Part shown: positions 9,076 to 25,956 of the stretch, piece after piece
Position numbering within the stretch: the first letter of the stretch is position 1
Layout of the letters: the number at the start of each line of letters is the position of its first letter
Virus record (IMG/VR): IMGVR_UViG_3300024269_004845
DNA length: 64,000 bases
DNA from: a virus
Lineage: Duplodnaviria; Caudoviricetes
Strand: one strand, 5' to 3'
Position numbers and translations under genes: made by a program
Notes under the pieces: generated by a model
What the model was told of the DNA's origin: nothing
What the model saw: the letters and a program-made list of their open reading frames with translations, nothing else
Database searches by the model: none

Positions 9076-9525
9076 TTAGAAAGGAAGGTCTTCATCATCC
9101 TCATCGTCTGCAGGGGCGCTATAAGCAGCAGGAGCAGTGTCCTCTGCAGCAGCAGACGTTGCAGGAGCAGCCTCAGCAGGTGTCTCTGCGGTCTCTGTAG
9201 TCTTTGCTTCACCGTCAGCCTTCTTCTTAGGAGAAGAAAGAAACTCAACAGTGTTTGCATTGACTACAAGCTCGTCAATCTTGTCTCCACTCTTTGTAGT
9301 GCGAGGATTGGTCTTGAGCTTACCGTTGATGTTGACCTTGCTGCCAGGAACGACATACTTGTCGACAATCTCAGCCAGCTTGTCATACACATGCACCGTG
9401 ATATAAGTCTTCTGGTCGTTCTGTTCTGTGGAAACCACACGAAGGACCATAAACGGCTTCTTACCGTCAGACTTGAAAAGCTTCTTAGAAACTACGCCTA
9501 CATTACCCAAAATAACAGTGTTCAT
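9076..9525 (-). CDS. ssb: single-stranded DNA-binding protein
   Basis: MNTVILGN OB-fold start, acidic tail DDEDDEDLPF. Confidence 0.9.
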   Translation of the reverse strand: MNTVILGNVGVVSKKLFKSDGKKPFMVLRVVSTEQNDQKTYITVHVYDKLAEIVDKYVVPGSKVNINGKLKTNPRTTKSGDKIDELVVNANTVEFLSSPKKKADGEAKTTETAETPAEAAPATSAAAEDTAPAAYSAPADDEDDEDLPF

Positions 9526-9594: not shown

Positions 9595-10089
9595 TTACTT
9601 TTTGAATATAACAGCAGAAATAATTTTGCCGTCAAGCTTAGGTTCCTTATCATATGTACAAGGCATACACTTTTTAATAAATCGCTTTACGACTTCTACG
9701 CCTTCATTTGCACGAACAATTTCTCGTCCGCTTAGGAATAAAGAAACCTTTACCTTAGAGCCTTCTTCCATGATTTCGACTGCTTTTTTGGCTTTGTGGT
9801 CCATATCGTGGTCACCAGTGTTGATGCCAATTTTAATTTCCTTTAAACCAGGCTTAGTCTTCGTCTTGGAAGCTTCCTTTTCTTTTTTCTTCTGTTTATA
9901 AATGTATTTGCTGAGTACTTCGAGAATGCAAATACTCGTATCTCCAGATTCACCAATCTGGATAAGGTCCACCTCTTCTTCGGCGGCTCGATTCATAGCT
10001 TCCTTGTAAGATAGCAAATCTTTTTCTCCAGAGATTCGAATTTTCTGATTCTTGATTTCCTCGTTGATTAAATACTGCTTGCTCAAAAT
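9595..10089 (-). CDS. infC: translation initiation factor IF3
   Basis: INEEI, KEIKI...GDHD, KVKVSL..GRE; in-frame ATT at 10089 is 9 nt after GGAG (ATT start is typical of infC), TTG at 10086 is the alternative. Confidence 0.85.
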   Translation of the reverse strand: MLSKQYLINEEIKNQKIRISGEKDLLSYKEAMNRAAEEEVDLIQIGESGDTSICILEVLSKYIYKQKKKEKEASKTKTKPGLKEIKIGINTGDHDMDHKAKKAVEIMEEGSKVKVSLFLSGREIVRANEGVEVVKRFIKKCMPCTYDKEPKLDGKIISAVIFKK

Positions 10090-11910: not shown

Positions 11911-11997
11911 GAAAAAACTCCTTCCAGTAGAAATGATTTATATTATTATATTTGAGTTGGGTATTATCTATGAATGAAAATCATTGAAGGAGAGTTA

Positions 11998-12414
11998 TTA
12001 ACTCTCCTTCACATTTTCAGTTTTTACCCATTCCAGGAATGTTTTTAATATTCTATACGCTTGACCAAGTCCTGCTTTATCATCTAACAATATATTAAAA
12101 TAAACTTTTCTCATATGTCCGTATTTTTCCATCATATAATCGACATTTTCGTTAAATGCGTCGCAAGGAATATCATTGTCTTTTATGTATTGCTTTACTT
12201 TTTCTGGATAATGATTTGATGTGTAACAAATAAATACGGCGTATGGTTTGAGTTCTTTTATTAAGGCGACAACATCATCGCAACATTTAGACATATAAGT
12301 TGGAGCAATGGTATCATCATAATCGTATGCCACAATGATTTTGCCATAGTTATGATAATGTACTTTTAGTTTTTCAAGAAGCGCGGAATCGTTAAAAAAA
12401 GTATCCATAAACAT
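11998..12414 (-). CDS. HAD-superfamily-like phage protein
   Basis: IIVAYDYDDTI motif I, RKVYFNILLDDKAG motif IV. Confidence 0.7.
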   Translation of the reverse strand: MFMDTFFNDSALLEKLKVHYHNYGKIIVAYDYDDTIAPTYMSKCCDDVVALIKELKPYAVFICYTSNHYPEKVKQYIKDNDIPCDAFNENVDYMMEKYGHMRKVYFNILLDDKAGLGQAYRILKTFLEWVKTENVKES

Positions 12415-12520: not shown

Positions 12521-13300
12521 TTACTTAAACAGATGTTTTGTGTTTGGTATAAAAATGGGAATTTCTTTTCTTTTATGAATAGAACCAACTTCTTTATTAT
12601 GAATTTTTTCATATACGGAATTTTCAAGGTCCACAAAAGGATTTCTAAGATACTCATGGACATCTACATACTTAATGCCCAACTTCTCTTCGTCACTCAT
12701 TCCAGATAATCCATCATCAGGGGTCTTGTGGATGAGGTCTGTGGGGATATTTTCATAAGTATCACCAATAGCAACAACTTCGAGGCTTGTTAAATTTCCA
12801 AGAGGATTGAAATCGCTTGCTCCATCTCCCCACTTAGTAAAATATCCAAGAGTTCTTTCACTCATATTACCAGTGCCACAAACTCTATAACCACCGCCCA
12901 TAGACTGAGCAACGGTATAGAGAGTTGTCATTCTAAGACGAGGAGCAATATTTACAGAAGCTTCTTCAGTAATTTTTTTTCTTTCGGGAGAAAGTCCTAC
13001 ATTAATAAATGCTGAAAGTTCGTTGAATGCTGAACCGATATTTACTGTAATGCTCTTGATTCCTAAAACCTCAACTACTCTTTTAGAATCTAAAATATCT
13101 TTCTGAACGCCATTTGGCATAAGAACACCGAGGACGTTTTCTGGTCCTAGGGCTTCGGCGCAAAGAGCAGCTGCTACAGTGCTATCCTTACCTCCAGAAA
13201 TACCAAGAACTACTCCTTTAAGACCGTGGTTCTTCATTTCTTGAATCCATTTAACAATGTCTGCTCGTACTTCACGAGCATTAAAATTGTAATTAGTCAT
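12521..13300 (-). CDS. nadE: NH3-dependent NAD+ synthetase
   Basis: GISGGKDS, NIAPRLRM, GYFTKWGDG, PDDGL, DEEKLG. Confidence 0.92.
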   Translation of the reverse strand: MTNYNFNAREVRADIVKWIQEMKNHGLKGVVLGISGGKDSTVAAALCAEALGPENVLGVLMPNGVQKDILDSKRVVEVLGIKSITVNIGSAFNELSAFINVGLSPERKKITEEASVNIAPRLRMTTLYTVAQSMGGGYRVCGTGNMSERTLGYFTKWGDGASDFNPLGNLTSLEVVAIGDTYENIPTDLIHKTPDDGLSGMSDEEKLGIKYVDVHEYLRNPFVDLENSVYEKIHNKEVGSIHKRKEIPIFIPNTKHLFK

Positions 13301-14120
13301 CGATATTACCCCCAATCTCAATAGTTGTTACATGGTCATCATTAAAATGACGAATAATACTATTTGTAGTATAAACATGGTCAATGTGTCCTTCAGAGAA
13401 AAGAGGCCCATCTACAATTACATTTTCACAATGGGTTACCCAAAGGGATACCTGATTTACGCCCTTTTCTTTAAGTGCCATACTAGCGAACTTAAAAGTA
13501 TTACCATACACACAGATATCGTCGATAATAAGGACGTTCTTTCCAGTCAGGTCAATACCTTCGTCTCCAACAATCTTAGAACAAAGGATTCTGCCCTTAT
13601 TTTCAAGGTCTCTTACTTTCTCAGCATAAATTACAGGATACTTAGAACAAATATCCTTATATCTTTCAGTATATTTCTTACGAGCGCCCTTATCGGGGAA
13701 CATAATAATATCAACGTTAAGGTTCTTAATAACATCGGTAATTACATTCTCCAATGGCATAATAACAAGGTTGTTAATTAGGTTCTCAGAAACAATGGAA
13801 TGTGGGTCCAGAACCTTAACCTTGGTGAAGCCAAGAGAATTAATCACATTTGCGAAGAATTCCAGAGAAAAAATCTGGTCGTTGATTTCTCTATCCATAC
13901 GAGAATAAGGGATATAGGGCATATATAGTTCGATAGCGCCGTTGGGAACCTTAGAACGGAGATAACCAATTGCCATAATCAAATTGGTTATATCTCGGTT
14001 ATCTTCAAAATACATTTCTACTTCATTCTTGTCAAAGAAAAGTAAATCTACCGTCTTATAAATGGCTTCATTGTTCTTGAAGGTTTCGCCACCAAAAACC
14101 TGTCCGTTGATTTTAATCAT
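13293..14120 (-). CDS. ribose-phosphate pyrophosphokinase-like protein (PRS or ADPR-PP synthase type)
   Basis: MPYIPYSRMDR, LDPHS, FPDKGA, IIDDICVYGNTF, VTH. Confidence 0.85.
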   Translation of the reverse strand: MIKINGQVFGGETFKNNEAIYKTVDLLFFDKNEVEMYFEDNRDITNLIMAIGYLRSKVPNGAIELYMPYIPYSRMDREINDQIFSLEFFANVINSLGFTKVKVLDPHSIVSENLINNLVIMPLENVITDVIKNLNVDIIMFPDKGARKKYTERYKDICSKYPVIYAEKVRDLENKGRILCSKIVGDEGIDLTGKNVLIIDDICVYGNTFKFASMALKEKGVNQVSLWVTHCENVIVDGPLFSEGHIDHVYTTNSIIRHFNDDHVTTIEIGGNIDD

Positions 14121-14125
14121 ATTTT

Positions 14126-14653
14126 TTAACCCCCAATTACATTAATCTGACACATTTTCATAGTAGTAAGTGCTGCATTATGTGTGTCAGGAGTAACACC
14201 AGCACAACATGTAGCGTCTATGGCTACATCAATTTCAGGAAGAGCAGCCTTGATAAGCATTGCGTTAGATACAACACAAATATCAGTACAAAGCCCAATA
14301 AGCTCTACATAGTCATATTTTCCGCCGACAACCATTTCGGGAAGATTGACACTTCCGAAAGTAATCTTATCAATTACTGTAACATCAACTTCTGCGGTCA
14401 TCAAAGCGTCCTTTACTTCATCGTTGATTTCGTGACCAGGAGTGTGTTTGATACAATGAGGAACAGGAAGATACTTACCTTCTCTGGTGTTCATATAATC
14501 GTTAGTATGAGTATCTCGAGTAGCAATAATATCTCCATCCCAGTCGTTAATCTTCTTAACGACATTAGGAACAATTGCTACTGCTTCTTTGGTGCCAAGA
14601 GCACCATCAATAAAGTCATTTTGCATATCGACAACAATTAAAAGCTTTTTCAT
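14126..14653 (-). CDS. pncA: nicotinamidase (cysteine hydrolase)
   Basis: VDMQNDF, DTH, HC, K.TFGS, GLCTDICV; lies in NAD operon. Confidence 0.85.
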   Translation of the reverse strand: MKKLLIVVDMQNDFIDGALGTKEAVAIVPNVVKKINDWDGDIIATRDTHTNDYMNTREGKYLPVPHCIKHTPGHEINDEVKDALMTAEVDVTVIDKITFGSVNLPEMVVGGKYDYVELIGLCTDICVVSNAMLIKAALPEIDVAIDATCCAGVTPDTHNAALTTMKMCQINVIGG

Positions 14654-14671
14654 AATAAAATCCCCCTTAAA

Positions 14672-15400
14672 TTAAAATTTTTGTGTATGATTTTCGTTAT
14701 ACTGATAGTATTCAGCAGGACGGTGAGCGGAGCCGTCATCCTTCATAGTGTTAGTGGTAATCAGCTTGTCGCCCATCTTACGACGGAAACCCTGTACCTT
14801 GCGACCCAGAATTGCCTGATATACCATTTCCAGCTCCTTAACAGTGAAATACTTAGGAACGAAATTAAATGCTACATCGGTGTATTCAATCTTGTTCTGT
14901 ACTCGATTAAACGCATCAATGATAATCTGCTTATGGTCAAATGCCAGGTCCTGAGTAGCGTATCTGCGGTCTTCAGACTGAACACAAATATTGGTTACCT
15001 TGCCAGACTTGTCACGCTCAGGAATAACCCAAAACCACATAGCATCGTGCATGTCAATATCTTCCTTCTTTACAAGTGCCATATGTGCGACGCTTACTAC
15101 TCGGCCTCTTTCATCTCGGTTAGGATTACCGTAGGTATAAAGCTGTTCCATATACAGGTTGTCAATACCAGTCTTTAGAAATAGCTTGTTCTTGGCTGCT
15201 TCGTAGATATCCTTATCAATATCAACAAAGCCACCAGGAAGGGCCCAACGACCCATAAAAGGTTCAATATTACGCTTTAGAAGCAGAACTTGAATACCTT
15301 TTTCAGGAACCTTTCGAGTATCATCAGTCTTAATATCTTCAGTTGCGAAAATAACGATGTCGGTCGCAACACTCATCTTAGGATAATCATTAAAAGTCAT
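14672..15400 (-). CDS. nrtR: NrtR-family ADP-ribose-sensing regulator (Nudix + wHTH)
   Basis: WALPGGFV, degenerate Nudix box, EQLYTYG..RD.RGRVVS, LAFDH, FTVKEL, HRPAEYY. Confidence 0.88.
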   Translation of the reverse strand: MTFNDYPKMSVATDIVIFATEDIKTDDTRKVPEKGIQVLLLKRNIEPFMGRWALPGGFVDIDKDIYEAAKNKLFLKTGIDNLYMEQLYTYGNPNRDERGRVVSVAHMALVKKEDIDMHDAMWFWVIPERDKSGKVTNICVQSEDRRYATQDLAFDHKQIIIDAFNRVQNKIEYTDVAFNFVPKYFTVKELEMVYQAILGRKVQGFRRKMGDKLITTNTMKDDGSAHRPAEYYQYNENHTQKF

Positions 15401-15455
15401 AGTCTCTTCTCCTTTTCAATTTGTCTTACTTCTATATTATATTTCTTTTTTAAAT

Positions 15456-15480
15456 ACTTAATAACATTTTGTGTCTAAGT
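15456..15480. promoter_or_regulatory. candidate operator upstream of nrtR operon
   Basis: imperfect palindrome ACTTAATAACATTTTGTGTCTAAGT, 22/25 identical to 22910-22934. Confidence 0.6.
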
Positions 15481-15740
15481 CTTCTCAAAAAAAATAAGAA
15501 GTTTTTCTTTTCTATTCTTATTATAACACAAAAATAAATAAAAGTAAAGAGAAAAATGGATTAAATGCAAAACAATTAGAACTCTTTTGTCATCTATCAT
15601 ACATAGTATTTTAATTTTGGAGTATATTTGAATATATAATATGAGTAAGTTAAATTAATTTAAAATTATATAATCGAAGATTTGAGCTTCGATAAAGTAG
15701 TAGATAACTTTTCGTATAAATTTTTTATCAAGATTTGTTT

Positions 15741-15786
15741 ATCCCTTCTACTTTATATCAAAGATTTGATATAAAGTAGAAGGGAT
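15741..15786. repeat. perfect 22-bp inverted repeat
   Basis: ATCCCTTCTACTTTATATCAAA-ga-TTTGATATAAAGTAGAAGGGAT. Confidence 0.9.
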
Positions 15787-15796
15787 GTTTATTTTT

Positions 15797-16000
15797 ATGA
15801 ATAAAACTAAAAAAGAAGTTCTTGAACATATTAAAGACCGCTACGAAGCAGGTGCTTTTGAGGAAGGTACATATAGACTGTTAGAAAAATTAATCAAAAA
15901 CGCAAAGAATGATGATGAAGCGATATTGATTGCCGAGTTAGGAGTCGGCAGAAGAACGGGATTAAATTATAGCAAAAAAAATGGAAGTATTCACGAGTGA
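15797..16000 (+). CDS. N-terminal fragment of type III Mod (frameshifted at A8)
   Basis: deleting one A in 15974-15981 fuses it in frame with 15981..17369. Confidence 0.65.
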   Translation: MNKTKKEVLEHIKDRYEAGAFEEGTYRLLEKLIKNAKNDDEAILIAELGVGRRTGLNYSKKNGSIHE

Positions 16001-17369
16001 TATAAAGTATTTAAAAAGAAATGAAAAACTTTCATTTAAAGACGAAAAAGAAAACTCTTTAACACATAAGTTGATTATTGGTGATAATTATCCAGCGTTG
16101 AAAAATCTTTTGTTAACTCATAGACATAAAGTAGATGTTATTTACATTGACCCGCCTTATGGAAGTGATAGTATGGGCAAGTTTGCAGAAACGAATTATC
16201 AAAATAATATTACCAGAGATAATTTATTGTCTATGTTATATCCTAGATTGTTACTGTCAAAACAATTATTAAGTGATAATGGAATCATTTTTTGTAGTAT
16301 TGACAACAAGAATTATGCATATATAAAATGCTTATTTGATGAAATTTTTGGCGAAAAAAATTATGTATCTACTTTAAATTGGAAAAAGAAAAAACAGCCA
16401 TCTTTTTTAAGTGTTGTGGCTGAAGTTATAGAATATGTGCTTGTTTATACAAAGACACCAGGGTCAATAAAAAAACTTTCGATAGAGACTTTGGGAGATG
16501 AAGATAAACCAATTATTAATTCTAGTAATGAATATTCTGAAAGATTGATAAAGAAAGGTTGCTCTGCTAAGTGTGAAGACGGTATTATTCCAAAAGGCAT
16601 CATAAAAAATAAAACTATGAGTATTGAATTCTTGGATGATGTTTGTATAAAAAACGGTGAAGTAATAAATGATTTTAGATGTAAAGCAAAATTCAGAACA
16701 ACGCAAGAAAATATAAATGAGTTTTGTGACGATAAACTTATATTCGTTACAAAGAATTATGGTCTAAGAAGATATTTGACAAAGGAAGAAATAAATAGTA
16801 AAAAATCTATTACTGATTTATTGCTTGATTGGGGGCAGAATCAAGATGGAACAAAAGAGCTAAAAGAAATATTCAATATAAAAGATGACACCTTTATTTT
16901 CTCCAATCCTAAACCTGTTTTATTAATAAAAAATATTATAAAATCAGTGGGGGGTTCTGAGGTAACTGTCCTTGATTTCTTTGCAGGTTCTGGTACAACT
17001 GGTCAAGCAGTGTTAGAACTTAATAAAGAAGATGGCGGTAATCGTCAATTTATCCTTTGTACTAATAATGAGAAAGAAGATGGTTATATAGCGGAAACAG
17101 TAACATCTAAACGATTAAAAAGAGTTATGACAGGTTCTTGTTATGATGGTAATACCGATTTTGAATGGATAAAAAAGAATGAGCCATATGGAGATAATCT
17201 TGAAGTATTTGATATCGCAGAAGTAAGTGCTAATATATCAGATGGGGGGACGTCCCCTTTTGATGTTATTGATGAAACTTGTTATGATAAAAAATTTGAT
17301 AATATACAAGATAAAATAGATTGGATTTGTAACAACTTCCAAGGGCTAACTAAGAAATTGGAGGATTGA
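15981..17369 (+). CDS. mod: type III R-M adenine methyltransferase (Mod)
   Basis: IYIDPPY, NPKP, LDFFAGSGTTG, CTNNE. Confidence 0.9.
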   Translation: MEVFTSDIKYLKRNEKLSFKDEKENSLTHKLIIGDNYPALKNLLLTHRHKVDVIYIDPPYGSDSMGKFAETNYQNNITRDNLLSMLYPRLLLSKQLLSDNGIIFCSIDNKNYAYIKCLFDEIFGEKNYVSTLNWKKKKQPSFLSVVAEVIEYVLVYTKTPGSIKKLSIETLGDEDKPIINSSNEYSERLIKKGCSAKCEDGIIPKGIIKNKTMSIEFLDDVCIKNGEVINDFRCKAKFRTTQENINEFCDDKLIFVTKNYGLRRYLTKEEINSKKSITDLLLDWGQNQDGTKELKEIFNIKDDTFIFSNPKPVLLIKNIIKSVGGSEVTVLDFFAGSGTTGQAVLELNKEDGGNRQFILCTNNEKEDGYIAETVTSKRLKRVMTGSCYDGNTDFEWIKKNEPYGDNLEVFDIAEVSANISDGGTSPFDVIDETCYDKKFDNIQDKIDWICNNFQGLTKKLED

Positions 17370-17374
17370 TACAT

Positions 17375-19507
17375 ATGTTAAAAGAGATAAAAGACTTACA
17401 AAATAATGCTGTAAATAAATTAGTTGTCTATACTGAAACAAATAATAAGGCAACATTCAAATCTCCAACTGGAAGTGGGAAAACATATATGATGGCATTA
17501 TATATGAATAAAATTCTTCAAAAAGACAACAATGTCGTATTTTTAGTTTCGTCTCTTTCTAGAAGCGAATTGGCGAAACAAAATTATGATAAATTTATTG
17601 AATATCAAGCATCTCTACCGTTATTAAATCCATATCTTATTAATACAGATGTTTCTGGAGAAGAAGATGTGTATATACCTGATGCGAATATCGCAAATAT
17701 ATTTATTCTTCCTACAGACCTTTATAAAAAGGGCGGTAAAATAGTAAATGCGTTTAATTCTTGGTTAATCGATACTAGGGCATTAGGTAAAAAGATATAT
17801 TTGATTAAAGACGAAGCGCATTCGAAAACAGCTAATTTAGATAGCAAATCTGACTTTTTTGATAAACAGTTAGATATAAGTGCTACACCAAAGCTGTCAA
17901 AAGGTCAAATACCAAATGTTGAAATAACTGAATTTGAAGCCGAGAATGCAAAATTAATAAAGCACGTTTATCAACAGGAAAGCAATTATTATAATTTAGA
18001 TGATTGCGCAAAGGGGCTTGATGAAGCACTTTTCGAGTTTAAAAAGATAAAAAATGAATATATAAAAAATAATCTTGGGGTTCATCCGTGTTTTATTATT
18101 CAAGTCTCCAACAAGGGGAAAGTTGAAGACGAATTGAAAGCAATTAAAAATGTTTTAAACAATAACCATAGTGATTTGAATTGGATGTATGTTGTTACGA
18201 AAGCAAAAACTGAAGAGGTTGATATAAAAGTCTCTAAAGAAGATGATTTTTCTGGAGTTCACTGTTCTACCAATGATGAAGGGCTTAAAAAAGTAAGTCC
18301 TTCAAAATGGAAAGACCTTGCCAAAAGCAATGTTTCTACAACAGATATAATTATTTTTAAACTTTCTATCAAAGAGGGTTGGGATATTCCAAGAGCTTGT
18401 ATGTTGTTTCAAATGAGAGATACACAAAGCGAAACTCTTGATGAACAAGTTATTGGGAGAATAAGAAGAAATCCAAGACTTCGAGATTTTGAAAGATTAA
18501 CAACTGAACAACAAAATTTATGTTTGAAAGCATATGTTTGGGGAGTTAGAGACAAGAGCAAATCGTCACTAAGAGAAGTTAAATGTAAAATAGAAAATCC
18601 AATTTCTGTAAAAACTACAAGACTAAAAGAAATAAAATCAACTAATTTTGATTTGAATATGTGCTTGGATAAAATAGAAACAAGTGTTGGATATTTTTCT
18701 ATTTTCGAGCTTTATGACAATCTACAAAATAGTTCGAAAGAAATATATGATTTATATAAGGATTATGTGAAAACATCTAATGATTTTTTGAGATTTTCTA
18801 AGAATATTCCCAAAATTAAAAAAGATATATCTAAAGTAATAAAAAATTATGACCAATATATGTACATACCAACTGATGATGAAGGCGTAGAAATTGTTCA
18901 TACTCTAAAGAATACATATTATTCTGAAACATTGTTAAATGATAAAAAGACCAATTTTCTAAAAATAAATGATTGGTTGTGGCAACGAACAGATAATGAA
19001 AGTGAATTTTCATTCGATAGTGAAGCTGAAGAATTATGGGCTGAAAGGTTGGTTGAATTATCAAAGAATATAGCAAAACAAGAGGGCCAAGAAAATGATG
19101 AGATAAATGTTTGGGCTAAAAACTTTATTGCTGCTTCCGAAATTTATTTCGAATACTTTTCAGATGGTATTCATAAGTCATTTCCTGATTTTATTTTGAA
19201 AGACAAAAAAGATGGAATACATTTTTTTGAAGTTAAAAGTTTAATTTCTAAAACAAATAGTAATATAGATGAATCTAGTTACCGTGAAAAAATAGATTGT
19301 TTAAAAGAATGTTATTGCCATTGTGCTAGATTAACTGGTTATTATTTTTATATTCCTATAATGTATATTGATAAATTTACTGAAAAGGCTACTTGGACAA
19401 TTTGGTATGCTTATAAAGAATATGATGAATTAAATAAGGAACGAATTGTATCTGGAGAATATACTTATAGTGGATTTGTGTCTGCTATGAATAATTTAAT
19501 TAAATAA
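17375..19507 (+). CDS. res: type III restriction endonuclease (Res)
   Basis: PTGSGKT, DEAH, SAT, EGWDIP, QVIGRIRR, C-terminal PDFI...FEVK nuclease. Confidence 0.88.
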   Translation: MLKEIKDLQNNAVNKLVVYTETNNKATFKSPTGSGKTYMMALYMNKILQKDNNVVFLVSSLSRSELAKQNYDKFIEYQASLPLLNPYLINTDVSGEEDVYIPDANIANIFILPTDLYKKGGKIVNAFNSWLIDTRALGKKIYLIKDEAHSKTANLDSKSDFFDKQLDISATPKLSKGQIPNVEITEFEAENAKLIKHVYQQESNYYNLDDCAKGLDEALFEFKKIKNEYIKNNLGVHPCFIIQVSNKGKVEDELKAIKNVLNNNHSDLNWMYVVTKAKTEEVDIKVSKEDDFSGVHCSTNDEGLKKVSPSKWKDLAKSNVSTTDIIIFKLSIKEGWDIPRACMLFQMRDTQSETLDEQVIGRIRRNPRLRDFERLTTEQQNLCLKAYVWGVRDKSKSSLREVKCKIENPISVKTTRLKEIKSTNFDLNMCLDKIETSVGYFSIFELYDNLQNSSKEIYDLYKDYVKTSNDFLRFSKNIPKIKKDISKVIKNYDQYMYIPTDDEGVEIVHTLKNTYYSETLLNDKKTNFLKINDWLWQRTDNESEFSFDSEAEELWAERLVELSKNIAKQEGQENDEINVWAKNFIAASEIYFEYFSDGIHKSFPDFILKDKKDGIHFFEVKSLISKTNSNIDESSYREKIDCLKECYCHCARLTGYYFYIPIMYIDKFTEKATWTIWYAYKEYDELNKERIVSGEYTYSGFVSAMNNLIK

Positions 19508-19554
19508 AAGCATAAAAAACACCTTTGATTTAAATCAAAGGTGTTTTTGTATTT

Positions 19555-19725
19555 TTACTTTTCTGCCTTATTCAAAGGGCATCTATCGCCTGCATCATGG
19601 AATACCATTTCATCATTTGTCGGAGTAAAGTACCCAGCATCAGGATGTCTGCACATACCACAAGGGATACCCATTTCCCAATATGTACATCCAAAACAGG
19701 TTCTCTTTTCGTTCTTATCTCCCAT
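19555..19725 (-). CDS. small Cys-rich protein (56 aa, not in ORF track)
   Basis: MGDKNEKRTCFGCTYWEMGIPCGMCRHP...RCPLNKAEK*, GGAG SD, directly after RyR gene. Confidence 0.6.
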   Translation of the reverse strand: MGDKNEKRTCFGCTYWEMGIPCGMCRHPDAGYFTPTNDEMVFHDAGDRCPLNKAEK

Positions 19726-19730
19726 ACTAA

Positions 19731-20099
19731 TCACTCCAATTCTTCAAATAATTGATTTGCTAATTTAACCATTAGCACATCCATTTCGTCTTTTCGCTTT
19801 TCAACATTGGATAAATTTTCAAAAGGAATCATACTAGGATGAGTTTTCTTTTCTACGTCAAGGACTTCTCCGTATGTATATCCTTGAGTTTTCTTTGCTT
19901 CCATCCAAATATTATGGTTTTCTTCTGCTGTAGTAGATGGATTGTTTAATACATATTCTGTGCCTTTCATCAGGCTTTTTAATCTTTCTTCTGATATTTT
20001 GTAATCTTCTGGCACATCATGTAATGGTAAATCCGCTCCCATCTGGTAACAAATCCATCCCAAATAACGGACTTTAGCAATAAATTCTACTTTGTCCAT
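19731..20099 (-). CDS. RyR domain protein
   Basis: HNIWM..K...GYTYG...D.EKKTHP.MIPF..L...EK.KD. Confidence 0.85.
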   Translation of the reverse strand: MDKVEFIAKVRYLGWICYQMGADLPLHDVPEDYKISEERLKSLMKGTEYVLNNPSTTAEENHNIWMEAKKTQGYTYGEVLDVEKKTHPSMIPFENLSNVEKRKDEMDVLMVKLANQLFEELE

Positions 20100-20104
20100 A
20101 TTAT

Positions 20105-20860
20105 TTACTCCTTAATAATCTTAACAATTACTGTTTCGATAGTTGTGCCACTTTCAGCGAACGCTCTAGTAGGTACATTCTCTACCAGTGTGTTGCGATG
20201 CTTGAGAAAAGTTCTAAAATTATCAGATGTTTCAGTCTGGTAATAAAGAGCATTTTCAGAAATGATGGCAACAAGAACTCCACCTGGCTTGAGCATATTA
20301 TAAGCCATCCAAACATGCTTAATATCTCTCTGACCAGAGAAAGGAGGGTTCATGACAACTCTATCAAACTTCTGAGTATTATGTTCTGCAAATTCTTCGA
20401 AAGTAGTTACACAATGATTATACCCCTTCCTACGAAGAACGTCGCTATTCTCCATAAGAGGTTCGACGGCAAGAATGTCGCATTTAACATCGATGGGGTC
20501 GAGCAAATTACCCCAACCTGCAGAGGGTTCAAGAACAGAGTTTCCTTCTTCAATTTCAGCCAGTTCAACAACGTGCTTTGCTACAGAAGTAGGAGTAGGA
20601 TAAAACTGAGTTTCTTCTTGCCACTTATAACGTTCAGAAACTTCTACACCATGTTCAAGGTAGTAATCAATCTTATCTCTTACATCTTCGCCAAAGACAA
20701 AGCACTTAAACTTTTCTCTCCAATGTCCTCCAAGATGTTCGATAATTGGCTTGAGCTTATCATATTCTTCGTCAGATACTGTACCAATATCAAGATGATA
20801 GAATGTACCGATATTGGGGTAGCTCTGTTCGTAGTAGTTATACATATTTTTCTCCTCCAT
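20105..20860 (-). CDS. class I SAM-dependent (N6-adenine type) methyltransferase
   Basis: QFYPTP, VLEPSAGWG, VMNPPF, AFAESGT. Confidence 0.85.
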   Translation of the reverse strand: MEEKNMYNYYEQSYPNIGTFYHLDIGTVSDEEYDKLKPIIEHLGGHWREKFKCFVFGEDVRDKIDYYLEHGVEVSERYKWQEETQFYPTPTSVAKHVVELAEIEEGNSVLEPSAGWGNLLDPIDVKCDILAVEPLMENSDVLRRKGYNHCVTTFEEFAEHNTQKFDRVVMNPPFSGQRDIKHVWMAYNMLKPGGVLVAIISENALYYQTETSDNFRTFLKHRNTLVENVPTRAFAESGTTIETVIVKIIKE

Positions 20861-20871
20861 TAAGTTAGTAA

Positions 20872-21096
20872 TTACTTTCTTAATATGTTATTTGCTTTGG
20901 TCTTAGCGGATTTATTACTAATATCCATAATAACCATTGTTACTTTGGGGTTAACTACAATCATGTAGTCATCGTTAGAATAATATCTGTGTTTGCCTAC
21001 AATGTTGTATAGAGTACAGTGTAGTTCATTTACAATCTTTTCTTCCCACTTATTTCTATTAAATAGTGGGGTCTTGAAATAAAGTACAGAATTCAT
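20872..21096 (-). CDS. hypothetical protein
   Basis: AAGGAG SD, in operon. Confidence 0.6.
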   Translation of the reverse strand: MNSVLYFKTPLFNRNKWEEKIVNELHCTLYNIVGKHRYYSNDDYMIVVNPKVTMVIMDISNKSAKTKANNILRK

Positions 21097-21132
21097 TGGT
21101 TTCTCCTTTGTTGTACGGGGAACTGTGGTGCA

Positions 21133-22866
21133 TTAAAATGCACCACAGTGTAGTCTGTCACGAATAGTCTTGAGGTCTTCATCTACAAGAAGCTTGCCAT
21201 CCTTAAATACAGGGCGAAGTAGATTATCTGCATACTCGGGGTTAGTCATTTCTTTAAATGTATGATGGTCAGTATAACGAATATCATCGCCATCTCGGAA
21301 GAGATAACAGAGGCCTTTCTGAGACTTCTTGAAATTATTACCCTTAATCTTGTCAGTAATAGGGTCCTTATAAATCTGACGTTCCTCTCCATTGATAATA
21401 CTATTAGTAGCTTTTAAAGCGAATCCTAGAGAGTCCCTCGTATTGTACTGGTAGGTAAAGCTACCCACGCCAAGCGTACAGTTATTAACTGCGAATCCCT
21501 TTTCTGCGAGACGAGTATAAATAGCAATTGCTCTTTCAGGCGTAATGCTATCACCATAAATAGCGCCAATATGAGGGTCGAGTACCTTATAACCCTTGCT
21601 GTTAATAGTACCACCGAAGATTTCCCAAAGAAGTTCAACAGTACCCTTCATAGCAGGAGTAATTTCGGCCTTTTCGAAATCTACATACTCAACAGTTTCA
21701 GTATAGTATCCATCACCATCTTCGTCAGTGGTCCAAGCATGGTCACAAGTTACCTTGTAAAGATAATCGCCAATTCTTACTCGATACCAAGTTTCAGAAG
21801 CGCCATTATAAGAATATTCATCTTCGGCTTTCTTCTTAAAGTAATCCTTGATACCGTCTTCAGTCAGACCATCTACTACCATGTAGTCGGAACCCTTGAG
21901 CTCACCACAGATAATATCAATGGGGTCACCGCTATCACCACGAATGATAATCTTACCATTACGGGCCATAATGGACTTCTTTAGACGAGGTAGATAATTA
22001 GTAATTACATTCCAGTAATCATAGGTGTCAGATACCATACTCAGAGGGCCAGTCTTAAATACATCCTCGATTAGATGACGATAGCATTCAAATTCACCTT
22101 CACGACCGTAAGAACTCATAACAGAGTGTTCGGTAGAAGGAACTCCACGGCCTACGGTTTCCTTGGTACAATCGCAGTTGTAGAAGTCTTCAAGCCACAT
22201 AATAGAAGCAATAGTAGCAGTACCAGTGAAAGAAAGAAGATGTCCTGCGCTGGACTTATATGCGGTATCCTTAGAAGTCATACCACGCATAGAGAAGTCA
22301 CCGCAAGCGCTGGAAGGTACGCCATTCTCAACTGTAAGTTCAAAGAACTTTTCAACGATTTCACGGTACTTATAAGCGATTGTAGCAGCAGTCATAGGAT
22401 GCCAAATATTTACACTGATATAGGTTTCAAGATAATTAACGAGCCAACCAAAACCCTTGACAGTATTAGAAATTTCAAACATTGGGGTCTTGATATTTAC
22501 ACGAGTACCCTCGGCAACAGCCTTAATCTGGATAGGTAGATAACCAAGGTCGTAAAGCTTCTTCATTTCAGTGGTATCAGCAGCCTGCTCAGTCATGGTA
22601 TGAGCAATGACACGCTTATATTCTGCTTCAATCTCTTCCCAAGGACGACCGAAGAAATGCTTTTCAAAAGCATCAATTAGATATTCCTTAATAAGACCCT
22701 GAAGACCAAACATAACAACCTTATTTACGCCCTCAATACGAGTCATACGAGGAGTCCAATAAGAAACAAGAAATTCCAGACCAGGCACATATGCCAGGTG
22801 ATGAATTGTCTTATAAAAGTCAGTTTCGAGCAATGGATTAATAGTGTGAGTTCTTGCGTTATTCAT
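21133..22866 (-). CDS. NAMPT/NadV-family phosphoribosyl- or ADP-ribosyl-transferase
   Basis: TDFYK, DFSMRG, PSTEHSVM, SMVSDTYD, RGDSGDP, IYGDSIT, GVGS, TRD, KDP; about 80 aa acidic insert after DPIDIICG. Confidence 0.9.
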   Translation of the reverse strand: MNNARTHTINPLLETDFYKTIHHLAYVPGLEFLVSYWTPRMTRIEGVNKVVMFGLQGLIKEYLIDAFEKHFFGRPWEEIEAEYKRVIAHTMTEQAADTTEMKKLYDLGYLPIQIKAVAEGTRVNIKTPMFEISNTVKGFGWLVNYLETYISVNIWHPMTAATIAYKYREIVEKFFELTVENGVPSSACGDFSMRGMTSKDTAYKSSAGHLLSFTGTATIASIMWLEDFYNCDCTKETVGRGVPSTEHSVMSSYGREGEFECYRHLIEDVFKTGPLSMVSDTYDYWNVITNYLPRLKKSIMARNGKIIIRGDSGDPIDIICGELKGSDYMVVDGLTEDGIKDYFKKKAEDEYSYNGASETWYRVRIGDYLYKVTCDHAWTTDEDGDGYYTETVEYVDFEKAEITPAMKGTVELLWEIFGGTINSKGYKVLDPHIGAIYGDSITPERAIAIYTRLAEKGFAVNNCTLGVGSFTYQYNTRDSLGFALKATNSIINGEERQIYKDPITDKIKGNNFKKSQKGLCYLFRDGDDIRYTDHHTFKEMTNPEYADNLLRPVFKDGKLLVDEDLKTIRDRLHCGAF

Positions 22867-22909: not shown

Positions 22910-22934
22910 ACTTAAATACATTTTGTATCTAAGT
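22910..22934. promoter_or_regulatory. candidate operator upstream of NAMPT-like gene
   Basis: ACTTAAATACATTTTGTATCTAAGT near-palindrome just downstream of a TTGACT...TATAGT promoter. Confidence 0.6.
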
Positions 22935-22991
22935 CTATATATACTATAACATATTTTTTTAAAAAAGTCAAGTAAAATGTCTTACTAAAAC

Positions 22992-23029: not shown

Positions 23030-23123
23030 TGGCGGAGACGGGGAGGCTCGAACTCCCGCACCGTTTTTTAGACGGCCTACCTCATTAGCAGTGAGGCCTC
23101 GTCACCATCTTGAGTACGTCTCC
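23030..23123 (-). tRNA. tRNA-Ser(GCT)
   Basis: cloverleaf, CCTCA-ctGCTaa-TGAGG, long V-arm, G73-CCA. Confidence 0.95.
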
Positions 23124-23133
23124 ATACACACTA

Positions 23134-23355
23134 TTATTCCAGCGTGAAGTATTGGATTTTCTCATATGAGAAACCAATATCTTCATGCGGAACATAGAAA
23201 ATTTCCTTTATAAGAGGGAGAAATTGATTATCTGGACGTTGCATTTCTTCAACGACCATGATAGCTGTGTCTTCATCAGGAACTATTAATATGGGAAGGC
23301 GATTAAAATCATCATATTCACCATATGAACCTTGAATCAGAAACATAACAATCAA
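23134..23355 (-). CDS. hypothetical protein
   Basis: acidic 73 aa ORF, GSYGEYDD motif. Confidence 0.55.
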   Translation of the reverse strand: MIVMFLIQGSYGEYDDFNRLPILIVPDEDTAIMVVEEMQRPDNQFLPLIKEIFYVPHEDIGFSYEKIQYFTLE

Positions 23356-23498
23356 ACCCTCGCAGAAAAATTTAAGGAGTGACTATTTCGAACATCCCAT
23401 CACTCACGGGGGCTCATTTGATTTCTCGTGAACGTTGCTCTTAAGTCCATGGGCTCAGATGCGTTGTCCCGATATGGCGCAGTGACGTAACTGCGCAA

Positions 23499-23810
23499 TT
23501 AACGAAGATTATGCATGAGCATAAAATTAGTGATAAAGTGACGCAAGAACTTACGAAGTTCTTCTTCATCAAGTGAAGTAGTCTCCTTTAAGGAACGCAA
23601 AACTTCATTACCTAAAGAGGTGACCTTGTGGTAGTTGTTATCTTCAAGAACGTTTCCGAAAATTTCAACCATATCATCAGAACTGTAATCTTCTGGTTCG
23701 ACTACTTTGTTGTAGTCTCCTATATCCTCTTCTGCGTAATCAGATATAGGTCCATAGAAATATGCTCTGTTTCCACTCGGGTTTTCCATAACGGTCCAAT
23801 TTCTAAACAT
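23499..23810 (-). CDS. hypothetical protein
   Basis: GGAG SD, acidic 103 aa. Confidence 0.65.
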   Translation of the reverse strand: MFRNWTVMENPSGNRAYFYGPISDYAEEDIGDYNKVVEPEDYSSDDMVEIFGNVLEDNNYHKVTSLGNEVLRSLKETTSLDEEELRKFLRHFITNFMLMHNLR

Positions 23811-23834
23811 ATATAATCTCCATTCTCAAAGAAA

Positions 23835-24168
23835 ATATGGCATTCGACCTGCAATCCGCAATCCTTCTTAACTAGGGAGTAGCGAGTTTTATCCCTTGTA
23901 CTTCGGGCACCTACTTTACCCCTCATGCTTTAGTCTCCATTTAAGGCCTCTGGCTGTTGCCACCAAGATTAACTTTGAATATATTAGGTAGATACTGCAC
24001 CCTCTTATGGGCATCGTCACTACTATTCGGTTTCGATAAATTATAAAACTTATCAAAACCTATAAGGATTATCCTTAATCGCAGTATTTAATAGAAACTA
24101 AATCATAATCATACGACTTAGTTTCAAGAGAGATATGGCGAACTATACCTCTCTATGACTCACTTACC
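23835..24168 (-). ncRNA. candidate multi-helix structured RNA (about 330 nt)
   Basis: hairpins 24127-24154, 24094-24125 and 24029-24060 whose mismatches are all G-U on the minus strand; boundaries approximate. Confidence 0.5.
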
Positions 24169-24310
24169 TGGAGCTGGTGGTCGGACTCGAACCGACAACC
24201 TACTGATTATGGTGGTTATCACAAGATTTGAACTCATATCTCCGACTAGCGGTGTCTTTCTTAGACGAGACAACCCAAGTCAGTTGCGCTGCCAATTGCG
24301 CCACACCAGC
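24169..24310 (-). tRNA. tRNA-Thr(TGT) interrupted between positions 35 and 36 by a 66-nt insert
   Basis: 35-nt 5' half (24276-24310) plus 41-nt 3' half (24169-24209) give a canonical 76-nt cloverleaf. Confidence 0.9.
24210..24275 (-). ncRNA. nested mini-tRNA (acceptor, D, shrunken anticodon, T arms, ACCA)
   Basis: GGTTGTC TC GTCT AAGAA AGAC A CCG CTAGT CGG AGAT ATGAG TTCAAAT CTTGT GATAACC A CCA. Confidence 0.85.
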
Positions 24311-24492
24311 ATATAGCCTATTTTGATTAAAGACCCAAATTAATCATATTCACTCGATTAATAAGAGTTTATTATATAACTAATAAGATGCTTTCGATTA
24401 ACCACTACTAACATCTAGCCTCTAATCCTGTATAGGGACAGGCACTTGGCTTTTTTTGTTGAGAACGCTATAGTGCGAAGTGAAACATTTAA

Positions 24493-24569
24493 TGGTAGGC
24501 CTGAAGGGACTTGAACCCCTGACCAAGCGCTTATGAGGCGCCAGCTCTAACCAACTGAGCTACAGGCCT
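24493..24569 (-). tRNA. tRNA(CAT), probably Ile2 rather than Met
   Basis: ctCATaa loop, Ile-like body AGGCCTGTAGCTCAGTTGGTTAGAGC, C4-G69, A73. Confidence 0.85.
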
Positions 24570-24814
24570 ATATAAAATGAGGGAATAGCATCATCACCCT
24601 CGATGGCACGTTGTGCGAGCTGCCTTCGGAAAGTCGCCGTCTCGTAATCCACATTCACGGACTTACTTCAGCAATGTAGATACGGTTTAACCATGCCCAA
24701 ACCATACAACGCTTCTGCCTCAACTGCATCGCTCAAAATGGGCTCCTACCGCAAAGTAACTAGCCGTTTTGTATATCAAACCTAGTTAGAAAAATTACTC
24801 TTGCGCAAGAGATA

Positions 24815-24901
24815 TGGTGCCGCAGGCGGGAATCGAACCCGCACACTGTTTCCAGTAAGGGTTTTTGAGACCCTCGCGTCTGCCTGTTCCGCCACTGCGG
24901 C
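24815..24901 (-). tRNA. tRNA-Leu(CAA)
   Basis: AGGGT-ctCAAaa-ACCCT, long V-arm, ACCA. Confidence 0.95.
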
Positions 24902-24921
24902 ATATCACTTTCAACATATTT

Positions 24922-24950
24922 ATTATAACATATTATTCCCTCAAAGTCAA
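24922..24950 (-). promoter_or_regulatory. sigma70/SigA promoter inside tRNA array
   Basis: TTGACT-N17-TATAAT with TG extension. Confidence 0.8.
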
Positions 24951-24978
24951 GTATTTTCGGGCTTTTTTGAAAGTTTTT

Positions 24979-25055
24979 TGGGGTCGAGGGCAGGACTCGA
25001 ACCTGCAAGGACTGGGGTTAATCCCCAGTATGTCTTCCAATTCCACCACCTCGAC
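24979..25055 (-). tRNA. aberrant tRNA-like gene (nominal anticodon TTA, A33, C73)
   Basis: perfect acceptor and T arms; anticodon arm CTGGGG-ATTAA-CCCCAG; Leu-like D-loop but short V-loop. Confidence 0.75.
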
Positions 25056-25062
25056 AAATAAA

Positions 25063-25239
25063 AGATACTAAACCTGCACTCCCGATTCTCCAAGCAGGAC
25101 AACCCTCTATTCCAAACCATATTATTTGGAACCCTTATAGGCGTCAACAAACGGGTCATAGCTATTTTGTCATCTACATGTTATTCCCATAATTACTTAC
25201 AGGCACTCGATATCGTACTTTTACTACCATTTAGTATCT
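25063..25239 (-). ncRNA. candidate structured spacer RNA (177 nt)
   Basis: closed by 10-bp AGATACTAAA/TTTAGTATCT, fills the spacer between two tRNAs. Confidence 0.45.
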
Positions 25240-25240
25240 A

Positions 25241-25332
25241 TGGCGGAGGCGGTGAGGTTCGAACTCACGCGGCGCTATTAACGCCCTACTCCCTTTCCAG
25301 GGGAGCCCCTTTGACCACTTGGGTACACCTCC
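25241..25332 (-). tRNA. tRNA-Ser(GGA)
   Basis: CTCCC-ctGGAaa-GGGAG, long V-arm, GCCA. Confidence 0.95.
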
Positions 25333-25343
25333 ATAAAATTAAG

Positions 25344-25572
25344 AAACCACCGACAACAGTCGCTTACGATTTTCACGCTGTCTCCAAGTCATGAGCTTGG
25401 CGCTTTATATTCGCATAGTATCAACAAGCAAGTGAATCATGACTTTCACCCGTTATCTTGTGACTTGTGCCTTCTAAGCTATTTGCCCCTATCACGATTA
25501 TCCTTTATGCGCTGGACCAGCTGGCGGGCATTCTATTAAGCATTCCTATTATTTCAAGGCTATCAGTGGTTT
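25344..25572 (-). ncRNA. candidate structured spacer RNA (229 nt)
   Basis: 14-bp closing helix AAACCACTGATAGC/GTTGTCGGTGGTTT with 3 G-U pairs, begins right after a tRNA CCA. Confidence 0.55.
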
Positions 25573-25691
25573 TGGTGGGAGAGGTTGGATTCGAACCAAC
25601 GAACGGTGAGCAACCGACCTTTTTTACGTGATAAGGTGCTAATCTTATCATGGTGCACCAAGGCTCCTTTAACCTCTTGGATACTCTCTCC
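25573..25691 (-). tRNA. tRNA-Tyr(GTA)-like gene with about 29-nt insert in the anticodon loop
   Basis: Tyr-type D-arm, V-arm, T-arm and ACCA; 31 nt instead of 2 between anticodon stem and GTAAA. Confidence 0.7.
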
Positions 25692-25713
25692 ATATATGCC
25701 GCAAATGCGGCTA

Positions 25714-25956
25714 TTAATATCCTTCTCTAATACAATTTCTAATCATTTCTTTAGTCCAAGGAGTTGTATCCTGGCAAGCAAAATGATTAATTGCCATTAG
25801 TGGAAGTTTATTTTTATTTAGTTCTTTCTTAATAAAAGAAATCATATCATCAGCTTCTTCATCATTGACAAAGAAGTCGAAACCTAAAGTAACAGGACCA
25901 CCACATCGAATATCGACGGGGTCGTTTCTTTCACAATCAACTATGATTTTTCTCAT
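25714..25956 (-). CDS. hypothetical protein
   Basis: GGAGG SD, 80 aa. Confidence 0.65.
   Translation of the reverse strand: MRKIIVDCERNDPVDIRCGGPVTLGFDFFVNDEEADDMISFIKKELNKNKLPLMAINHFACQDTTPWTKEMIRNCIREGY

Follow-up and report, generated by a model that had tools for sequence, protein, structure and literature searches.

We examined a 64-kb window (the whole stretch of DNA analyzed, 64,000 nucleotides) of IMG/VR virus record IMGVR_UViG_3300024269_004845. The window comes from an element of about 266 kb, and it alone was searched; the element is a giant phage- or plasmid-like entity of gut bacteria. It carries a set of NAD+ genes that, with a probability we place at roughly 0.6, represents NAD+ reconstitution pathway 1 (NARP1) in a nicotinate-type variant whose genes are divided between two co-regulated operons. 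NARP1 pairs an ADP-ribose pyrophosphokinase (Adps) with a NAMPT-like transferase (Namat), and it is known from the phages SPbetaL1, Bas63, ICP1, and DyoEdafos and from Paenibacillus foliorum (bioRxiv 10.1101/2024.02.11.579819; PMC12774641; PMC13586617).

The proposed route starts with the cleavage of NAD+ into ADP-ribose (ADPR) plus nicotinamide. A nicotinamidase (PncA) would deamidate nicotinamide to nicotinate, and an Adps-type enzyme would pyrophosphorylate ADPR to ADPR pyrophosphate (ADPR-PP). A Namat-type enzyme with Ala217 and Ser244 in its base pocket would join nicotinate and ADPR-PP to form deamido-NAD (NaAD), which the NAD synthetase NadE would amidate to NAD+. PncA would thus make the substrate, and NadE use the product, of the proposed transferase reaction; neither a mononucleotide intermediate nor an adenylyltransferase would be needed. 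The family memberships, the pocket substitutions, the duplicated operator, and the gene linkage reported below are read directly from the DNA. From them, we infer the substrates of the enzymes, the effector of the regulator, and a role in counter-defense. To a broader proposition, we would give even odds: that the joining of nicotinate to ADPR-PP is an undescribed reaction; that, across gut phages, giant mobile elements, and bacteria alike, it underlies a fourth and widespread kind of NAD+ reconstitution pathway; and that this pathway is wired here to an ADP-ribose-sensing repressor, such that the host's NADase defense, through its product, switches on the counter-measure, with the same repressor also controlling a RyR-domain protein that targets cyclic ADPR and a haloacid dehalogenase (HAD)-family phosphatase that may make more ADPR derivatives available for recycling.

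An initial annotation of this DNA had described an nrtR-pncA-prs-like-nadE operon and a NAMPT-like gene, and all of these genes are in place on the minus strand. The deamidated route that it suggested is favored by the grouping of the Prs-like protein with Adps, by the adenine clamp and the Ala217/Ser244 pair of the transferase, by the linkage to PncA and NadE, and by the operators. The RyR gene, the HAD phosphatase, the common 25-bp operator, and an unrelated restriction-modification pair between the operons are additions to that annotation. The NAD genes form two minus-strand operons, with the plus-strand restriction-modification pair between them:

15400-11998, minus: operon 1, in the order nrtR-like, pncA, adps, nadE, HAD phosphatase
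14672-15400, minus: NrtR-like regulator with a Nudix-like sensor and a winged-helix DNA-binding domain (PF21906 NrtR_WHD, 1e-11; NUDIX, PF00293, 2e-7)
14126-14653, minus: PncA-type nicotinamidase of the isochorismatase fold (Isochorismatase, 3.7e-22)
13293-14120, minus: Adps-type Prs homologue (phrog_619, 3e-65; under the Pfam and TIGR01251 cut-offs)
12521-13321, minus: NH3-dependent NAD synthetase NadE (PF02540, 1.3e-51; TIGR00552, 169 bits, cut-off 63.65)
11998-12414, minus: small cap-less HAD-family phosphatase of 138 residues, the last gene of the operon
22866-19731, minus: operon 2, in the order NAMPT-like, 74-residue open reading frame (ORF), methyltransferase-like, RyR-domain gene
21133-22866, minus: Namat-type NAMPT homologue of 577 residues (phrog_448, 6e-173; NF006629, 513 bits)
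20872-21096, minus: ORF of 74 residues with no family match and no homologue in the fetched loci
20105-20860, minus: orphan N6-adenine DNA methyltransferase-like gene, 251 residues (weak Eco57I, N6_Mtase, and MTS matches)
19731-20099, minus: RyR-domain protein of the RyDEP family (PF02026, 1.8e-11)

The Prs-like protein is 34% identical to the validated Adps of SPbetaL1 (tblastn 7e-33, blastp 4e-39). Its best matches are phage Adps proteins; the best phosphoribosyl pyrophosphate (PRPP) synthetase (PRPS) in the PDB is matched at only 4e-12. Against TIGR01251 (cut-off 113 bits), the protein scores 85 bits, SPbetaL1 Adps 106, and three further Namat-linked homologues 66–71; four Namat-less bacterial and archaeal homologues that served for calibration score 280–324. 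It has no match to PF13793, and those to PF14572 and PF00156 are below the cut-offs. By these scores, it falls short of a class I PRPP synthetase. Among 164 homologues in a tree, exactly the 50 Namat-less PRPS proteins are set apart by one branch (Shimodaira–Hasegawa-like approximate likelihood-ratio support, 91); the window protein and SPbetaL1 Adps are across that branch from them, and the choice between Adps and PRPS, which the initial annotation had left to phylogeny, falls to Adps. The protein also has a Namat-type partner, whose gene lies about 7 kb away in a separate operon that bears the same operator sequence.

The structural residues of ICP1 Adps are F18, R87, F92, K185, D212/D213, and the PP loop. 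By motif, and as read without the ICP1 sequence, the window protein has RMDR, PHS, K168-x-R, DDIC, and F209-x-F211. At the position equivalent to ICP1 Adps D216, it has Val, and the validated SPbetaL1 Adps has Ser. The ICP1 adps gene was not found in the first 50 kb of NC_015157, and the PDB sequence search returned no Adps structure. The tree, the scores, and the Namat-type partner point to an enzyme that would convert ADP-ribose and ATP to ADPR-PP.

The NAMPT-like protein is 42% identical to the SPbetaL1 Namat gene product (blastp), and it matches PDB entries 9w5w and 9w5x at 3e-147. Because of this identity and an identical helix motif, we took these entries to be SPbetaL1 Namat. Namat is defined by an adenine “selectivity clamp” with the helix motif GSX-phi-X-phi-X-phi-TRD (PMC12774641). 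The selectivity-clamp helix (SCH) of the window protein reads GSFTYQYNTRD (residues 468–478), with aromatics at positions 3 and 7, and is identical to that of SPbetaL1 Namat; the clamp residues R43 (the arginine of the selectivity-clamp loop, SCL), F470, and Y474 are all kept. In the catalytic core, the catalytic phospho-histidine H247 is conserved, as are R309 and D311 (for R306 and D308). The crystal structure shows 21 residues in contact with NAD+, and 18 of these are identical in the window protein. The three that changed (SPbetaL1 to window) are D215 to A217, A242 to S244, and A362 to S440, and the first two of these positions line the nicotinamide pocket. Since Ala217 and Ser244 replace the Asp215 and Ala242 of Namat, we have not filed the protein as a nicotinamide transferase.

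In SPbetaL1 Namat, D215 hydrogen-bonds the amide of nicotinamide, and the D215A change lowers NAD+ synthesis about eightfold (PMC12774641); its equivalent in human NAMPT, Asp219, is fundamental to substrate specificity (PMC7096376). The window transferase would then act like Namat with a changed base, and its predicted reaction is that of nicotinate with ADPR-PP to yield NaAD. Khan et al. (2006) are said to have found that the D219S mutant of NAMPT accepts nicotinate. A surface loop of the protein also holds a rare insertion, about 75 residues long (residues ~325–400); a comparably long segment occurs in 6 of 105 relatives.

The companion enzymes are readily placed. The best PDB match of the PncA-type protein is P. 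horikoshii PncA (1im5, 1.4e-14), with which its triad (D9/K96/C122) and its metal site (D47/H49/H66) align; with a score of 26 vs. the NF008623 equivalog cut-off of 174, it is a distant member of the family. NadE, at 266 residues, has the PP-loop SGGKDS and no glutaminase domain, and the start of its gene overlaps the stop of adps.

To compare gene neighborhoods, we assembled 163 Adps-centered loci: 80 from GTDB genomes and 80 from IMG/VR, obtained by profile-guided scans on Adps relatives, plus SPbetaL1, Phass-1, and MT835544. A single-protein search for loci in IMG/VR returned nothing, and the alignment-based search recovered them. Neighboring genes were called by tblastn, with PncA and NadE counted within about 8 kb. 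A Namat-like gene accompanies adps in 104 of the 163 loci, and the two genes adjoin each other there; PncA is present in 88, NadE in 88, and NrtR in 22, all of them bacterial. The four core enzymes are clustered in 77 of the loci, and PncA and/or NadE occur in 94; thus, chance does not account for the grouping of these genes. The linkage includes the deposited phages Phass-1 (OQ749652) and MT835544. Among the fetched loci, the closest relative of the window transferase (71%) is on a Ruminococcus metagenome-assembled genome (MAG) contig with the order nrtR-pncA-adps-namat.

An alignment of 105 Namat-like transferases from these loci shows how the base pocket varies with the company of the gene:

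Neither PncA nor NadE nearby, 11 loci: Asp at the D215 column in all, Ala at column 242
Both PncA and NadE nearby, 77 loci: Ala or Ser at the D215 column
NadE only nearby, 10 loci: Ala or Ser at the D215 column
PncA only nearby, 7 loci: Ala or Ser at the D215 column

The 94 transferases linked to PncA or NadE have Ala (70) or Ser (24) at the D215 column, and column 242 is always Ser.

The two operons share more than their orientation. The NrtR-like protein, which heads operon 1, matches NF050029 (“ADPR responsive repressor”) at 1.3e-39, although its 136 bits are below the cut-off of 400. Its solved relatives, according to a PDB search, are Bacteroides AraR (7e-29) and Shewanella NrtR (1e-22). 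It has the degenerate Nudix-like N-terminus and the winged helix of NrtR proteins; its Nudix box, read by eye, is without the catalytic glutamates (REUxEE reads NKLFLK), and the domain appears to be catalytically dead. Upstream of each operon are a promoter-like site and a palindrome:

15520-15548, minus: promoter-like site of the nrtR operon, TTTACT-17 nt-TG-TATAAT (consensus scan, 10/12 matches, extended -10; a consensus match only)
15456-15480, minus: operator-like near-palindrome of 25 bp, ACTTAGACACAAAATGTTATTAAGT; 40 nt past the -10, with the promoter on one side and the nrtR start codon on the other
22943-22971, minus: promoter-like site of the namat operon, TTGACT-17 nt-TGnTATAGT (consensus scan, 10/12 matches)
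22910-22934, minus: second operator-like palindrome, ACTTAGATACAAAATGTATTTAAGT, which begins 8 nt past the -10 of the namat promoter

The near-palindrome common to both intergenic regions is ACTTAGAYACAAAATGTWWTTAAGT. The copies are identical at 22 of 25 bases, and the arms of the one at 22910-22934 are complementary at 10 of 12 positions. The 25-bp pattern has two matches in the 64 kb and no further one even in degenerate form with two mismatches, and shuffled sequences are expected to give 0; as the pattern was derived from its own two sites, the weight lies in their similarity and uniqueness, not in the zero-mismatch matches. NrtR sites are reported on or just after promoters (PMC2330246), and both copies are so placed on promoter-like sites of NAD genes. 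The closest NrtR among the fetched loci is that of Oceanirhabdus seepicola, in which two ACTTA-N15-TAAGT palindromes are directly upstream of a homologous pncA-adps-namat-nadE-nrtR operon; in an Alistipes MAG contig (L043), a palindrome of this build precedes nrtR by 60 bp. The NrtR-like repressor would bind the 25-bp palindrome at both promoters. Its effector is probably ADP-ribose or a close derivative; we propose that, upon release of the repressor by such a molecule, the module turns on when NAD+ is cleaved.

Two accessory genes would come under the same control. Homologues of the RyR-domain protein occur in 289 phage records. Judged by eye and without an alignment to RyDEP, its H62, W65, H87, and D104 are spaced exactly as H75, W78, H100, and D117, which are ligand and catalytic residues of RyDEP. 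RyDEP sits in a NARP1 operon and turns 2'/3'-cyclic ADPR (cADPR) into ADPR, and most of its tested homologues are sponges (bioRxiv 10.64898/2026.05.28.727677). The window protein is predicted to bind or cleave 2'/3'-cADPR Thoeris signals, a glycosidase and a sponge not being separable by sequence, and it would remove or linearize these cyclic signals.

The 138-residue protein at the end of operon 1 had no sequence match in Pfam, NCBIfam, or the PDB, and Foldseek gave none at E < 0.001. We placed it in the HAD superfamily because of its motifs, its AlphaFold2 model, and a VIA-align comparison. Across 33 homologues, the DxDxT motif (D31, D33, T35), K103, and D111 are invariant, and D112 is nearly so; the model has a predicted local distance difference test score (pLDDT) of 85.6; and the top structural matches, at Z 7–9.4, are all HAD folds, including 2obb (Z 9.4) and the 3'-phosphatase of T4 Pnkp (Z 8.1). 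In Phass-1, a homologue is flanked by Namat and NadE; in three Asp-type loci, Adps and Namat are the flanking genes. A metagenomic homologue of 224 residues (P0173) is fused to a RyR (PF02026) domain, a fusion that links the two accessory genes of the module. We suggest, with low confidence, that the phosphatase acts on a phosphorylated ADPR derivative, which it may trim; together, the RyR and HAD proteins would feed or protect the pathway. The methyltransferase-like gene of operon 2 is probably not part of the NAD pathway. We considered its product as a small-molecule (e.g., nicotinamide) methylase and rejected this in favor of a DNA N6-adenine methylase, given its FYPTP and NPPF motifs.

Several observations weigh against the nicotinate-type route. 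In 17 of the 94 linked loci, just one of PncA and NadE is found within the flank. In the Namat tree, a single branch sets the Asp-type sequences apart, the loss of Asp being one change, with two Ala/Ser interchanges; because of that single branch, the association of pocket and linkage is one event with long retention, not a set of independent replicates. Most of the Ala/Ser-type relatives, though not the window protein, have Cys or Ala at the second clamp aromatic, and the Ser-type group has Met aligned with clamp Arg40, changes that could amount to a weaker preference for ADPR-PP. SPbetaL1 D215A keeps partial activity with nicotinamide, and Namat uses PRPP in vitro as well (PMC12774641). Were the transferase still to use nicotinamide, the phage-encoded PncA would compete with it for that base. 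Of the 94 Ala/Ser-type loci, 11 have a NadM-like gene directly after NadE (including L110:16062-16637 and L132:14971-15534), and a NadD-like gene lies about 6 kb from the module in one 245-kb phage. To our knowledge, NadD is essentially universal in hosts, and for that reason a missing adenylyltransferase cannot alone exclude a mononucleotide route. On the regulatory side, the best solved homologue of the NrtR-like protein is the arabinose sensor AraR, and the canonical NrtR core GT-N7-AC was sought and not found in the 25-bp sites. The pocket argument accordingly rests on which residue changed, on the lack of any reversion to Asp across a deep and diverse clade, and on a four-gene clustering that survives reorderings; this clustering persists through several gene orders, in phages plus Bacillota, Bacteroidota, and Spirochaetota.

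As the main rival, we see a Preiss–Handler salvage through mononucleotides that is completed by NadD: the Prs-like protein would make PRPP, the Ala217 enzyme would make nicotinate mononucleotide (NaMN), a host NadD or a NadM-like enzyme would convert this to NaAD, and NadE would finish the route, with ADP-ribose acting merely as a signal. Loss of the pocket Asp suits nicotinate equally well with PRPP as the donor; the in vitro activity of Namat with PRPP, the lost clamp aromatic in most Ala/Ser-type relatives, the NadM-like and NadD-like neighbors, and the ubiquity of host NadD all comport with it. Nevertheless, the Prs-like protein groups and scores with a validated ADP-ribose pyrophosphokinase, far under true PRPS proteins, and the window transferase has the complete adenine clamp, its motif identical to that of SPbetaL1 Namat. 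Carrier bacteria, moreover, would already have PncB and Prs, and a duplicate set would be of no obvious use to them.

The genes for adenylyltransferases bear on the same question. The core module is without PncB and NadD. The initial annotation had noted the absence of NadD, NadM, and NadR, and this held: no NMN or NaMN adenylyltransferase is among the window ORFs scanned (about 10 ORFs of ≥100 residues were outside the scan), and neither NMNAT, NadR, nor PnuC was found in the 64 kb. The sole CTP_transf_like protein of the scanned ORFs, and the only nucleotidyltransferase found with a HIGH motif, is the following:

38216-38680: CoaD (TIGR01510, 151 bits, cut-off 103)

We considered it as the missing adenylyltransferase and rejected it, since it is a CoaD that matches phosphopantetheine adenylyltransferases in the PDB at 6e-31; for want of an NMN adenylyltransferase among the scanned ORFs to go with the transferase, the module was also not classed with NARP2. 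The initial annotation had further cautioned that an NMNAT elsewhere might complete an ordinary salvage route. This caution is unsupported in the scanned window ORFs and finds some substance in the 11 relatives with a NadM-like gene. The NadM-like proteins best match archaeal-type NMN adenylyltransferases, at scores below the cut-offs; in locus L132, a NADAR-family gene (14164-14613) is found between NadE and the NadM-like gene. In approximately 88% of the loci, the flank is free of adenylyltransferase genes, and none was found in the complete Phass-1 genome or in a 345-kb phage. With only 11 of 94 loci having a NadM-like gene and one a NadD-like gene, the adenylyltransferase is added only now and then and does not belong to the core. 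On balance, we regard the PRPP-based route as unlikely.

Somewhat less likely again is an ordinary NARP1 with unrelated helpers, in which the transferase still uses nicotinamide and PncA and NadE boost host Preiss–Handler flux or detoxify excess nicotinamide. The one-eighth activity left to SPbetaL1 D215A is compatible with this, as is the single phylogenetic event behind the association, and nadE occurs alone in some marine phages, with no Adps or Namat nearby. But none of the 94 linked transferases has reverted to Asp, while Ala and Ser do interchange, and the second pocket residue changes along with the first; PncA would consume the transferase's own substrate; and the tight four-gene cluster survives rearrangements in phages and bacteria alike.

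The least probable alternative keeps the same chemistry and gives it a housekeeping role, as a bacterial NrtR regulon acquired by a giant plasmid-like element, which would recycle ADP-ribose and nicotinamide from normal NAD+ consumers: the module has NrtR beside it in 21 bacterial loci (plus one Adps–NadE locus without Namat) and in 0 of 80 viral contigs, NrtR-controlled prs-nadV and pncA/nadE regulons have long been known in bacteria (PMC2330246), bacterial NARP1 exists, and no capsid, terminase, or other virion gene was seen among the annotated genes of the 64-kb window, whereas the namat operon carries a member of the RyDEP family, whose role is Thoeris evasion, the module is common in viral contigs, and the published phage role of the Asp-type pathway is counter-defense.

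The remaining features of the region belong to the layout of the operons and to the element at large:

15981-19507, plus: type III-like restriction-modification pair, an N6/N4 methylase and a ResIII helicase (PF01555, 1.5e-29; PF04851, 2e-14)
11985-12011, both strands: bidirectional terminator-like hairpin that ends the nrtR operon, with a 12-bp stem followed by a T run
19515-19548, both strands: bidirectional terminator-like hairpin with a 15-bp stem, where the RyR gene and the res gene converge
23022-22996: terminator between the tRNA array and the namat promoter
46631-48619: LigA (phrog_3869, 1e-195)

The restriction-modification pair is unrelated to the NAD pathway and merely separates the operons; its GC content is 29% vs. 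35–39% in the flanks. A hairpin with a perfect 20-bp stem (15740-15787) occupies the divergent region between the nrtR promoter and a small ORF preceding the methylase gene; it probably serves the restriction-modification unit as a terminator or regulatory element. The presence of LigA on the element had been pointed out in the initial annotation. A megablast search of the 10-kb region against phage records gave no match.

Elsewhere in the window, an array of 14 tRNAs (23030-28029) is nearly all of the long-arm type (4 Leu, 4 Ser, and 3 tandem Tyr), with 2 Met in addition; it includes a suppressor-type tRNA with the anticodon TTA (24979-25055). A CCA-adding enzyme is encoded at 31404-32732, and the genes of the window read normally under code 11. 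A homologue of translation initiation factor IF-3 (9595-10086) adjoins a single-stranded DNA-binding protein, SSB (9076-9525), an unusual cargo typical of huge phages or giant plasmids. A protein of the metallo-beta-lactamase fold (7245-7928) weakly matches the anti-Pycsar protein Apyc1 (32 bits, cut-off 50) and RNase Z, and may be a cyclic-nucleotide or tRNA-processing nuclease. A cluster at 372-5256 comprises YpsA/SLOG (372-899), an R2K ATP-grasp protein (2140-2940), an MgtC-family membrane protein (3118-3570), and a transglutaminase-like protein (4507-5256). Finally, a truncated pyruvate-kinase-like barrel (39429-40445; TIGR01064, 170 bits, below the cut-off) lies with CoaD in a run of unknown genes.

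NAD+ depletion is among the commonest antiviral strategies of bacteria, and NARP1 is the best understood metabolic antidote. If the nicotinate-type route is correct, it entails a new enzyme activity, the direct synthesis of NaAD from an ADP-ribose derivative, and it would account for the presence of pncA and nadE in many gut phages, as it would for the long-standing puzzle of bacterial “prs-nadV(-nadE)” clusters under NrtR control. For Cytophaga, the list of Rodionov et al. (2008) has “nrtR-prs-nadV; nadE” and offers no mechanism (PMC2330246), and chromosomal adps-namat(Ala)-nadE-nrtR clusters without a nearby pncA in Sphingobacterium genomes (L013-L015, L017, L021, L025, L029) match that listed regulon. 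The NrtR wiring would then be a clear case of a counter-defense induced by the defense's own product. The deamidated detour could pay off in several ways: charged nicotinate may be trapped in the cell; some hosts may have a PncA that quickly removes nicotinamide; an extra ATP-driven step may exert a pull; and the intermediate may be one that NADases do not cleave.

A search of the literature found no paper describing a nicotinate-routed NARP1, a NARP1 with nicotinamidase or NadE, or a NARP4 or NARP5. PncA and NadE are both absent from a 2022 survey of viral NAD systems, and the Phass-1 paper annotates the genes of the module without discussing them. What is new here is that the element carries its own NrtR with a pair of operators, that the layout is split, and that RyDEP-like and HAD genes come along as accessories.

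How, then, does the module compare with known systems? Like the Preiss–Handler pathway (PncA, PncB, NadD, NadE), it has PncA first and NadE last and follows a deamidated logic; unlike that pathway, it is without PncB and NadD, and its Adps/Namat pair would bypass NaMN. With NARP2 (Nampt and NMNAT) and NARP3 (PnuC and NadR; PMC13464706), it shares the placement of NAD+-restoring genes on a mobile element, but it is set apart from them by the lack of NMNAT, NadR, and PnuC in the window, a NadM-like gene being confined to a minority of relatives.

Known bacterial NrtR regulons include nrtR-prs-nadV (Shewanella, Acinetobacter, Cytophaga) and nrtR-pncA-pncB-nadD-nadE (Clostridium acetobutylicum) (PMC2330246). 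The window resembles them in having a repressor with Nudix-like and winged-helix domains beside NAD salvage genes, with palindromes on or after the promoter and with ADP-ribose as the expected effector. It differs in that the regulon is on a giant mobile element, the 25-bp palindrome has an AC-N5-GT center in place of GT-N7-AC, and the repressor stands over Adps, Namat(Ala), PncA, and NadE instead of prs-nadV or pncAB-nadDE.

The accessory genes also have counterparts. As with RyDEP of DyoEdafos, a single-domain RyR (PF02026) protein with the same H/W/H/D spacing is encoded in the operon of Namat, although the window protein is only about 30–37% identical to other phage RyR proteins. NARP1-AP consists of Adps, the Macro-domain phosphatase Adpp (an ADPR-1''-phosphatase), and Namat (bioRxiv 10.64898/2026.01.28.702374). 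It likewise joins a small phosphatase to NARP1 genes, and three Asp-type relatives have a HAD gene in the Adpp slot; the window phosphatase is of the HAD fold (DxDxT), in contrast to a Macro domain.

The nearest comparison is NARP1 itself. The window has an Adps-type enzyme (34%) and a Namat-type enzyme (42%) with the same clamp motif and catalytic His, and in both systems no adenylyltransferase is needed. It departs from NARP1 in its core genes, which are 7 kb apart in two operons under an NrtR-like repressor of their own, and in its base pocket, in which Asp has become Ala and Ala has become Ser. With PncA and NadE as companions, this pocket implies that the product of the transferase would be NaAD rather than NAD+.

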